Source: Candidatus Aenigmatarchaeota archaeon (GTDB lineage Archaea; Aenigmatarchaeota; Aenigmatarchaeia; CG10238-14; SpSt-28). Taken from it: DNA of 64,000 nt. How positions within the stretch are numbered: the first letter of the stretch is position 1; the number at the start of each line of letters is the position of its first letter. Positions 10,706 to 12,103 of the stretch are shown in pieces. A program made the position numbers and the translations under genes. The notes below the pieces were generated by a model. That model saw only the letters and a program-made list of their open reading frames with translations, was not told the origin of the DNA and did not search any database. The stretch is from positions 84,571 through 148,570 of the forward strand of contig JAVYPJ010000002.1 of assembly GCA_038733315.1 (NCBI GenBank), given 5' to 3'.

Positions 10706-12103
10706 ATGAGTTTTAGAAATAAAAATTCGAGTTTAAAAAAATTAATTTCTGCATATGTAGCTACAGTTATTTTAGTTGCTTTAACAATAGGAATTGGAGT
10801 TACATTATATCTTTATTTTTCTGGCTACGTTTCTTATTTAGAGACAAAAACTGAAGAAACCTCTCCAATAAAATCAATTATAGAATGTTCAAAAGCAAGA
10901 ATAGATTTTAATGCTAATAAAAATTTTAAATATAGAATTCCTATAATAATAAATAATACTCAGAATTCAGAGAATTTAGAAGATTATCAAGTTTTAGTAA
11001 CAATAAATACTCAAAACTTAATTTCTCAAGGCAAAATGAGAAGTGATTGTGGAGATATAAGATTTACTGATAGTGATGGAAGTACTTTATTAAATTATTG
11101 GATTGAAAGTGGTTGCAATACAACTAATACAAAAATTTGGGTAAAAGTACCAAATATTCCTGCTAATTCAAATAAAATAATTTATTTGTATTATGGAAAT
11201 CCGAGTGCGACAAGTATAGGTAGTGGAGTCTCTACTTTTTTAGCGTTTGATTGGAAATTCGATGGACTGATAGGAGGAAGAACGTCAGCAGGAAGTTATC
11301 ACACCTGCGCATTACTTTCTAACGGTACAGTAAGATGTTGGGGTTGGAACGATAATGGCCAATTAGGCGATGGAACAACAAAGAGCAGATACACCCCAGT
11401 CACTGTAGTCAATCTAAATGATGCAGTAGCGATTGCAGCAGGAAGTTATCACACCTGCGCATTACTTTCTAATGGTACAGTAAGATGTTGGGGACGTAAT
11501 GGCAATGGTCAATTAGGCGATGGAACAACAACTAGTAGATACACCCCAGTCACTGTAGTCAATCTAAATGATGCAGTAGCGATTGCAGCAGGAAGTTATC
11601 ACACCTGCGCATTACTTTCTAACGGTACAGTAAGATGTTGGGGGTTGAACAATTATGGCCAATTAGGCGATGGAACAACAAGTGATAAGTACACCCCAGT
11701 CACTGTAGTTAACTATACTCTTGGAGGAAAGTATGAAAAAACGGGTGGAATACTAACAATTCAAAGAGCGCCTTTTTTTGTTGATACTTACTTCGTTCGT
11801 AAATATTCTCCAATAGAACCAACAATTTTCCTACAAACTGAAGAAACCTCTCCAATAATAAAACTAACTATAATAAATTTAGGTATTGATTTAGGTAAAA
11901 AATTACAGTTAAAATTAATATACGAAGATAATAAAACAGAATCAAGAAATATAAATCTAAACGAAACTTTTAAGCCTGGAGATTTTTTAGAAATTACTTT
12001 AAAAGATTTACCTAAGGGAAAAATTAAAAAAATAGAGATTTATTGTTTAGATGTATGTCCTGGATTATTAATTGGAATAAAAAGTGTAAATATTGAAGTT
12101 TAG
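10706..12103 (+). CDS. Pilin-like (class III signal) surface protein with DUF2341 domain and three RCC1/BLIP-II repeats
   Basis: N-terminal KKL|[15 protein letters not shown] resembles the archaeal pilin N-terminus. YRIPIIINN...DYQVLV...DIRFTD...YWIE...IWVKVP...YLYYGN is DUF2341-like. Three copies of [27 protein letters not shown] follow. Confidence 0.88.
10848..10871 (+). repeat. 24-bp direct repeat, copy 1 (AAACTGAAGAAACCTCTCCAATAA)
   Basis: Identical to 11835..11858; both copies encode TEETSPI. Confidence 0.9.
11288..11709 (+). repeat. Three tandem 150-bp (50-aa) RCC1 repeats
   Basis: Units start at 11288, 11438 and 11588 (GCAGGAAGTTATCACACCTGCGCATTACTTTCTAA). They are near-identical except in two short patches; the last unit is truncated. 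Confidence 0.95.
11835..11858 (+). repeat. 24-bp direct repeat, copy 2
   Basis: Identical to 10848..10871; the 987-bp offset is in frame. Confidence 0.9.

Follow-up and report, generated by a model that had tools for sequence, protein, structure and literature searches.

The gene considered here lies at 10706..12103 on the forward strand of a 64,000-nt stretch of contig JAVYPJ010000002.1 (GenBank assembly GCA_038733315.1, positions 84,571 to 148,570; hereafter the window), from the genome of a Candidatus Aenigmatarchaeota archaeon (G000; 733 kb, 28% GC) whose nearest public relatives are hot-spring metagenome-assembled genomes (MAGs) labelled Candidatus Aenigmatarchaeota. This open reading frame (ORF) is open throughout and encodes a pilin-like modular surface protein of 465 amino acids (hereafter the target), as assigned from the ORF and its Pfam matches. 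Sequence comparisons indicate that the protein is one archaeal pilin fold split in two, with the second piece placed ~330 residues after the first. A DUF2341 domain is spliced as a holder into the loop between pilin strands β1 and β2, and an array of three RCC1 units sits inside this holder, a double nesting. The ORF, the DUF2341 domain, the three RCC1 repeats and the C-terminal beta domain with a C-x-x-x-C-P motif reported in the initial annotation were all found as described; what had to be given up was their linear order, since the domains are nested.

DUF2341 (PF10102) was matched over residues 114-182 (E 6.7e-25, 87.8 bits against a cut-off of 23.4 bits), and the RCC1 models PF00415 (E 6.6e-33) and PF13540 (RCC1_2, E 4.4e-40) each matched three stretches of the target. 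The tandem RCC1 units, of 150 nt each, occupy 11286..11735 (11286-11435, 11436-11585 and 11586-11735), as delimited by Pfam, Tandem Repeats Finder, a repeat search and an AlphaFold2 (AF2) model. Tandem Repeats Finder reported a period of 150 nt and 2.8 copies with 90% matches at 11286-11709, and in the repeat search units 2 and 3 were 93% and 83% identical to unit 1, the differences being concentrated in the WG-x-N-x-x-G and TT-x-x-x loops and not in the strands. The whole-propeller model WD40_RLD (PF25390) scored 136 bits, below its 150-bit cut-off, and covered profile positions 201-346 of 363. The C-terminal motif reads C-L-D-V-C-P (Cys447, Cys451 and Pro452); of its two cysteines only the second, Cys451, is kept in relatives, and this family-wide conserved residue is likely to pair by a disulfide with Cys61. 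In all, the target contains 11 cysteines and nine N-x-S/T sequons.

Nested architecture of the pilin frame

The target genome holds small proteins of 135-154 aa with a target-like N-terminus, and many more were found in relatives. A profile built from 19 of these small paralogs and relatives (A1) matched the type IV pilus subunit of Pyrobaculum calidifontis (8FK7) over its full length (E 3e-12), and further matched 8REY (E 8.5e-6), the Haloferax volcanii pilus (8FJ5, E 1.2e-3) and Iho670 (5KYH), the identities of the matched solved structures being taken from PMC10334743. Pilin_N (PF07790) matched 11 of the 19 small proteins at E <= 0.1, but neither the target nor its cargo-less join. When residues 77-384 were removed from the target, the remainder aligned to A1 across both halves (hhalign probability 99.3%, E 9e-21, 129 columns), spanning the helix, the first strand with its conserved Cys (ECSKARIDF) and the C-terminal sandwich. 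Because the cargo-less target aligns in this way, the C-terminal beta domain is what remains of the pilin fold after the interruption, with the cargo in the β1-β2 loop. Together with the Pfam matches, this bears out the earlier proposal of a pilin-homologous surface protein with a DUF2341 and RCC1 insert. Moreover, an empty frame of the target's own subfamily was found in the congener G005 (L051), which reads ...ECSKVNVDIAASGGSGYVNLTLVNLGIDLG... at the insertion point.

A similar argument places the RCC1 array within the holder. The cargo segment TFLAFDWKF and a C-terminal cargo segment match, respectively, the strands that open and close the LamG heads (FEFFDDF ... WIRVRKYTSPEPT) carried by the other DUF2341 modules of the genome, so that the array occupies the head position of the DUF2341 holder.

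All elements of the gene are on the forward strand. The class III-like N-terminus (10706..10849), delimited by a column-wise pilin alignment and the AF2 model, consists of a short polar leader, Leu13 in the –1 column and then the helix. The first copy of a perfect 24-nt in-frame direct repeat, AAACTGAAGAAACCTCTCCAATAA (K-T-E-E-T-S-P-I), forms at 10848..10871 a linker before strand β1 (10874..10921), which carries the conserved Cys61 and is, from the hhalign match to A1 and the alignment, the last pilin element 5′ of the insert. The N-terminal sandwich of the DUF2341 holder (10922..11207; PF10102, blastn to paralogs, AF2) ends at IYLYYGNP, with a 5′ exchange breakpoint at 11207. It is followed by a head segment (11208..11285) which, by alignment, is homologous to the first LamG-head strand of other holders and was modelled with a predicted local distance difference test (pLDDT) score of 33-34, and then by the RCC1 units. 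The RCC1-head tail (11711..11798; alignment, pLDDT 31-48) overlaps the end of unit 3 and is common to 1-, 5- and 7-unit relatives. The closing strand of the holder and the second copy of the 24-nt repeat (11835-11858) lie at 11799..11857, with a 3′ exchange breakpoint at 11799, and the remainder of the pilin β-sandwich, from β2 to the end, at 11858..12100 (hhalign, alignments, AF2 pLDDT 75-93), including Cys447 and Cys451-Pro452.

Database searches with other models and segments were less productive. The NCBIfam UpsA model matched weakly (20-38 bits against a 130-bit cut-off), and a whole-protein search of representatives was dominated by multi-propeller RCC1 proteins and was uninformative on architecture. 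A word-indexed search with the tail and C-terminal domain returned three proteins, namely the target, its paralog B and one LamG-bearing relative, and the pilin frame therefore appears, by this sequence search, to be rare in public data.

Number of RCC1 units

The same DUF2341-RCC1-tail order was observed with seven units in other DPANN MAGs (P0053, P0062, P0084, P0103 and P0117), and the existence of such homologs made the collapse of a longer array a serious possibility. In the congeneric Candidatus Aenigmatarchaeota MAG G004, assembled in 4 contigs, an ortholog collinear with the target over the whole gene was found (68% nucleotide identity in one high-scoring pair of 1,408 columns; ~62% protein identity). 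It has exactly three units, and since these are mutually only 68-76% identical in DNA, with exact runs of at most 27 nt, an assembler could not have merged them. The frame is open and all structural RCC1 residues are kept in both species, in spite of 55% amino acid identity between the blades. Strict synteny of the target with the G004 ortholog was not found; in G004 the gene follows a thermosome gene and a tRNA. The neighbours of the target include two TyrRS genes, prefoldin beta, thermosome and intron-bearing tRNA genes, which together with the size and GC content of the genome identify a DPANN archaeon.

Depths measured from exact unitigs of an independent run (X1) pointed in the same direction. 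Unitigs specific to units 1, 2 and 3 had depths of 9.6, 10.4-16.2 and 11.1, respectively, a stretch present twice, common to two units, had a depth of 20.5, and the flanks of the repeat block ranged over 15-21. As no unit class was inflated (approximately 1:1:1, with the twice-present part at about double), hidden extra units are not indicated. In addition, no exact match of at least 25 nt to the head region 11209-11839 was found elsewhere in the genome. The three-unit count is very probably real and recurs in a second species, and the collapsed seven-repeat assembly that the initial annotation had named as its possible refutation was not found in related MAGs or in unitigs.

Some variation was observed across this region in the metagenomic data. 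One contig of run X4, with a depth of 4.1 where the flanks have ~50, leaves out 164 nt within 11527-11692 and has 14 other letters in their place, so that on balance exactly one 150-nt unit is lost; this contig may represent a two-unit population variant or a related gene of another organism. Around the gene as a whole (10690-12100), the long Logan contigs of four runs stop at ~10630-10690 and resume at ~12076-12104, and the gene region itself is represented by short branching unitigs with many variant letters, which makes it a microdiversity hot spot between conserved neighbours.

Among relatives, one unit per holder was found in G010 and G011, three in the target and G004, five in G018 and seven in five proteins. 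The last unit and tail of the target are 73% identical to those of the seven-unit P0062 and 72% to those of G009, and only 55% to those of G004, while the last unit and tail of G004 are 80% identical to those of the five-unit G018 protein. Two distinct RCC1 lineages are thus carried on the same pilin frame, both with three units. The units within an array resemble each other more than their positional counterparts, which points to either concerted evolution or independent grafts. Three units are recurrent on the pilin frame and not obligatory, and the sample is too small to claim selection.

Other RCC1 arrangements were encountered as well. In L008 (G001 C5:6225-7217), a pilin-like helix passes after '...GLKIKSII' straight into at least six RCC1 units, without the β1 strand and the DUF2341 holder, which is a different type of junction between the same two parts; the contig ends in the array. 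In the target genome no other RCC1 gene was found, only a single intergenic unit with in-frame stops (G000 C2:273572-273706), a decayed relic of another RCC1 head. A four-blade partner that would complete the target's three blades to seven was accordingly ruled out.

Predicted structure of the RCC1 head

The target was modelled by AF2 with a hand-built 29-row alignment, after a single-sequence run (mean pLDDT 52) had been discarded. The model reached a mean pLDDT of 78.9 and a predicted template modelling score (pTM) of 0.43. The N-terminal region was predicted as one long helix (residues 7-48, pLDDT 82-90), and high values were also obtained for the DUF2341 β-sandwich (81-94), the RCC1 blades (86-97) and the pilin sandwich (75-93), with low values for the head segment (residues 172-191, ~33) and the tail segment (residues 339-367, 31-48). 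Blade geometry was judged from Foldseek superpositions only, in which ~147 residues were placed on three consecutive blades of UVR8 (1.2 Å, 36% identity), HERC2 RLD2 (1.5 Å) and RCC1 (1.7 Å). From these superpositions, the modelled blades form an open arc (3/7) that is curved as in a seven-blade ring, and this arc may partly reflect propellers learned by the network. A closed seven-blade ring was not recovered by any measure, the target having three units only, a PF25390 score below cut-off and a superposition on three blades. The AlphaFold monomer suggested earlier as a check returned three propeller blades with high confidence, as an open arc, but low confidence for the segments that would brace it. 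A monomeric open arc braced by the holder is considered more likely than a propeller closed by oligomerization.

Exchange of heads between pilin frames

Two paralogs in the target genome illustrate how heads may be exchanged. In paralog B (G000 C1:97817..95904), DNA identity to the target is 93.5% over both 10718-11207 and 11799-12110 (blastn), and the part in between encodes an unrelated head of ~369 aa, similar to IgGFc-binding proteins (PF17517). Paralog A (C2:41592..44225, 877 aa) has its promoter region, N-terminus and C-terminal domain in common with the target, and carries two DUF2341-LamG modules. LamG or lectin heads were also found on the same frame in the relatives L005, L048, L049, L052, L061 and P0270; L061 shares with the three-unit gene of G004 the MNNFNL leader and the tRNA-adjacent position, yet has a lectin-like head. 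Metagenome contigs branch at 11202-11208 and 11795-11828. Because paralog identity ends and resumes, and contigs diverge, at the conserved YYGNP and RKYSPEPT motifs, these were taken as the breakpoints, and the comparisons argue that heads are swapped between near-identical frames by recombination there. It had been supposed that DUF2341 and RCC1 were acquired together as one module; the insert does behave as an exchangeable module, but the exchanged part is the head inside the DUF2341 holder (11208-11798) and not the two domains as a single block.

The two copies of the 24-nt repeat (10848-10871 and 11835-11858) bracket β1 and the cargo, and were considered as a target-site duplication or excision site. 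This was rejected, as the real breakpoints lie at 11207 and 11799; moreover, no skip corresponding to an excision joint (10871 to 11859) was found in four runs. Paralog B has both copies (the first exact, the second with two mismatches), the empty frame of G005 has only the first linker, and across the genus the second linker (EETSPII) is conserved and the first varies. The repeat is better read, from these alignments, as two similar linkers apparently homogenized in the target genome.

The GC content of the repeat block is 0.42-0.45, compared with 0.22-0.25 in the flanks. This contrast, noted initially, is real, but it is mostly a matter of amino acid composition: the RCC1 block is rich in Gly, Ala, Cys, Trp and Thr, and a GC content of 0.40 would be expected from its composition under the codon usage of the genome, against 0.438 observed. 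GC at third codon positions is also raised (0.287, against a genome mean of 0.187 with a standard deviation of 0.03 among long ORFs), an excess resting on three near-identical 50-codon units, that is, on ~50 independent codons. A foreign origin was rejected as the main explanation of the GC richness, which is weak evidence for recent import.

Several other members of this family showed unusual arrangements. Paralog B is a 637-aa open frame with no in-frame start codon (C1:97817-97870 region); upstream of it, a short ORF with an ATG start enters an (AT)6-A5 tract, and a shift of that ORF by –1 gives the main frame. Both the tract and the frame relation are kept in two other species (L045:186 and L047:1755) despite different flanks, which suggests a conserved slippage, frameshift or phase switch and not a dead gene. 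In G002 C6, two identical 324-aa frames ~4.6 kb apart (L049:344-1315 and L050:354-1325) have a LamG head fused directly to the pilin C-terminal domain, each with a short pilin-helix ORF upstream; they are recent duplicates of a frame gene that has been split or rearranged. L061 lies on a 6-kb contig (JBDRXT010000076.1) binned as 'candidate division WOR-3 bacterium', where an Aenigmatarchaeota-type pilin frame gene stands beside an archaeal-looking tRNA; this contig is probably mis-binned.

N-terminal processing and pilus machinery

All characterized archaeal pilins have G/A/S at –1 in a [K/R]-[G/A/S] motif before the cleavage site, as in UpsA (KA↓IS), UpsB (KG↓IS) and AapA (RA↓LS) (PMC4371748). 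The class III-like N-terminus described in the initial annotation aligns column by column with pilins and is directly followed by a long hydrophobic helix, but its –1 residue is Leu (K11-K12-L13↓I14-S15, that is, K-K-L↓I-S), where the aligned KG↓IS, RA↓IS and KA↓IS pilins, from this genome and from related ones, have G or A. The conservation of this residue suggests that Leu is a rule and not an accident, so that either a divergent peptidase would accept it or the cargo carriers would stay uncleaved as membrane stalks.

As for the machinery, three loci comprising an ATPase and two TadC genes were found in the genome above Pfam cut-offs. One of them (C1:106286-108890) is adjoined by a canonical small pilin gene (G000 C1:105627, forward strand; ~140 aa), whose product begins MKG↓ISPLIATIILIGITV... 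(MKG↓ISPLIAT) and is likely the major pilin of that system. The only Peptidase_A24-like gene of the genome, and hence its only prepilin peptidase candidate, lies in the window at 32570..33379 on the reverse strand; it encodes a 269-aa membrane protein with a near-threshold match to PF01478 (24.9-25.7 bits against a 26.5-bit cut-off, covering 5-103 of 104 profile positions) and a weak match to EppA, and is a candidate divergent prepilin peptidase.

Proposed role and alternative explanations

DPANN archaea spend their lives attached to other cells, hosts that they recognize and hold by largely uncharacterized means. The target is read here, with fair probability, as a cargo carrier from a family of type IV pilin homologs in Aenigmatarchaeota, with a swappable head and a role in attachment. 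The protein would be exported and held by its N-terminal helix. Two modes of display are considered, one as a minor or tip subunit in one of the cell's three type IV pilus systems, the other as a membrane stalk that stays uncleaved. Its three blades would then offer an open, loop-presenting binding surface by which a symbiont-sized archaeon could attach to a host cell or substrate, with blade number and loop sequence as variable elements of specificity. The target is probably an exchangeable attachment device.

Several observations weigh against this interpretation. The gene does not adjoin any pilus locus. The N-terminus departs from the [K/R]-[G/A/S]↓x processing motif: Leu occupies –1 not only in the target, since both paralogs and all frames with cargo in the genus have it too, and the G004 ortholog (N-L↓I-S) has a leader, MNNFNL, without K/R or any charge. 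Set against the G/A/S rule, the Leu at –1 and the uncharged G004 leader make cleavage and filament incorporation doubtful. A three-blade arc would expose two blade interfaces, and the head and tail segments expected to brace it have pLDDT values of 31-48 in a model with a pTM of 0.43. The 1- and 5-unit relatives, the RCC1 relic and the frame-disrupted paralog speak of rapid turnover in the family, so that the target could be on its way out. Finally, the read data were Logan unitigs of related samples and not raw reads of the source sample, which leaves a residual doubt about the unit count.

The three-unit array might, to begin with, owe its length to assembly, by the collapse of seven or more units to three or by the misjoining of the pilin frame to the RCC1 head of another DUF2341 gene through the multi-copy DUF2341 core. 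Conditions for such errors exist: units 1 and 2 are 93% identical, with a long exact stretch spanning the unit boundary, words of the DUF2341 core occur at a 10- to 200-fold excess of depth, and exact matches of the target to paralogs reach 80-92 nt; contigs of several relatives (L004, L008, L009 and L053) end within RCC1 arrays, and unitigs are too short to link frame and head physically. Nevertheless, the independent 4-contig assembly of another species, G004, yields the same frame with three units too diverged for collapse, the unit-specific depths of X1 are about equal and do not exceed the flanks, with the twice-present part at about double, and the target is located on a 288-kb contig with a head region unique in the genome. 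Collapse is largely excluded by these data, and an artefact of either kind is highly improbable. A biological contraction is another matter: in-frame recombination could have shortened a seven-blade head into a non-functional stub, a decaying or neutral remnant within a fast-turnover family. The series of 1, 3, 5 and 7 units among relatives, the single-unit relic with stops at G000:C2:273572-273706, paralog B without an in-frame start (and its split counterpart in G004) and the minor X4 contig that appears to lack exactly one unit would all fit such a history. What makes it unlikely is that the frame has stayed open and all structural RCC1 residues have been kept in two species at 55% amino acid identity over the blades, that units differ in loops and not in strands, and that AlphaFold confidence for the blades is high.

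If the array is functional, its open form might be completed to a closed propeller by oligomerization, between filament neighbours or as a free dimer or trimer, as the initial annotation had supposed. Pilins are polymeric by nature, the predicted monomer is an open arc, and three units occur twice on this pilin frame, in two different RCC1 lineages, a hint that the number is under selection; but seven is not divisible by three, so that two or three copies would need a ring of six or nine blades where the modelled curvature is that of a seven-blade ring, and we know of no such 6- or 9-blade rings for RCC1-type blades. With relatives of 1 and 5 units, moreover, no single stoichiometry fits all, and no four-blade partner is encoded in the genome, which leaves this mechanism with little probability. 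Greater weight, though still short of being favoured, is given to the possibility that the target is not a filament subunit at all and that its pilin-like helix is an uncleaved signal-anchor of a stalk tethered to the membrane, with the head displayed through the S-layer, a possibility that differs from the attachment reading only in the mode of display. Leu at –1 in all cargo-bearing frames of the genus, next to canonical KG↓IS and RA↓IS pilins in the same genome, the uncharged MNNFNL leader of G004, the G/A/S required at –1 by the known rule (PMC4371748) and the difficulty of fitting a cargo of ~35 kDa, as it would seem, into a filament body all point to it; the pilin fold kept in full, the retained pair of conserved cysteines, the divergence of the sole candidate peptidase and the precedent of large class III-signal proteins known as PibD substrates, such as the substrate-binding proteins of the Sulfolobus bindosome (PMC4371748), speak against it.

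A more far-reaching combination of these ideas is regarded as quite improbable. In it, RCC1 arrays of 1, 3 or 5 units in DUF2341 holders would be functional open fragments, and not products of decay, whose blade number is tuned in a recombination-driven repertoire of DPANN adhesins; the three-blade arcs of neighbouring subunits, or of the pili of two cells, would complete each other, so that binding or pilus bundling would depend on polymerization, and the conserved Leu at –1 would set apart a class of pilin-like carriers handled unlike the canonical pilins of the same cell.

The design of the locus is a compact one, combining a pilin frame, a universal DUF2341 holder and interchangeable binding heads, with recombination breakpoints readable in the DNA. 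The idea of modular pilins, developed for bacteria, is thereby extended to archaea, and to a double nesting. The three-blade RCC1 fragments, natural and conserved in two species, offer a test case for the stability and function of open fragments, and the Leu at the processing site raises a testable question on the specificity of divergent archaeal prepilin peptidases.

Comparison with known systems

RCC1/BLIP-II folds are usually seven-bladed propellers. In repeat sequence and modelled blade geometry, the target matches the seven-bladed RCC1-like propellers (RCC1 1A12, UVR8 4DNW and the RLDs of HERC2), but it has three blades, no closed ring and no Velcro closure, and its array is inserted in another domain. 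Sub-heptameric repeat counts are also found in other prokaryotic proteins, as in the Legionella pneumophila effectors LegG1, PpgA and PieG, which have only 2-3 recognizable RCC1 repeats (PMC7157520) and are functional. These effectors, however, are cytosolic, injected proteins that act on the Ran cycle and, by prediction, complete their propellers with cryptic blades, for which the target, with only 20-30 residues on each side of the array, has no room.

The frame family of the target shares the [KR]-x↓I-S-x-x-[IV]-A-T N-terminus with the Pyrobaculum subunit 8FK7 and with Sulfolobus UpsA and UpsB, which, unlike the target, are cargo-less proteins of 130-145 aa with A or G at –1. DUF2341 proteins (MJ1470/arCOG03508) encoded in archaeal type IV pilus loci are predicted pilus or tip adhesins (PMC4858521), and the DUF2341 gene MMJJ_08210 of the Methanococcus maripaludis epd locus was a hit in a transformation screen (PMC10133366). 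The target has the same domain and the same predicted adhesive role, and the organization into holder and head also occurs in the large multi-module DUF2341 proteins of its own genome. Those of the pilus loci are nevertheless large, stand-alone, secreted proteins, whereas the target has a single holder within a pilin and lies away from the machinery, and in place of a LamG-type sandwich its head is a three-unit RCC1 array.

The closest parallel is provided by the bacterial modular pilins, such as the adhesins PilB (with a vWA module) and PilC (with a ConA-like lectin module) of Streptococcus sanguinis, of which more than 1,200 proteins in 264 architectures were surveyed through the bacterial pilin signature IPR012902, in a study whose text does not mention archaea (PMC8179133). 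As in the target, a functional module of some bulk is carried by a small pilin module; the role is adhesive, as it is predicted to be for the target, and many architectures have come about by 'grafting'. The nearest precedent for the insert is GspK, whose pilin β-sheet has a domain inserted into it (PMC8179133). The target differs in that its frame is of the archaeal Pilin_N type and not IPR012902, that its cargo is inserted in the β1-β2 loop, after which the pilin sandwich resumes, instead of being appended at the C-terminus by a short loop, and that this cargo is nested twice and preceded by a non-canonical processing motif (Leu at –1). Modular pilins and DUF2341 adhesins being already known kinds, the target is a variant of these and not a new system; what is new here is that the nesting on an archaeal pilin frame is double, that recombination breakpoints can be seen, that a non-canonical processing site has been conserved and that a three-blade RCC1 head is confirmed in two species.

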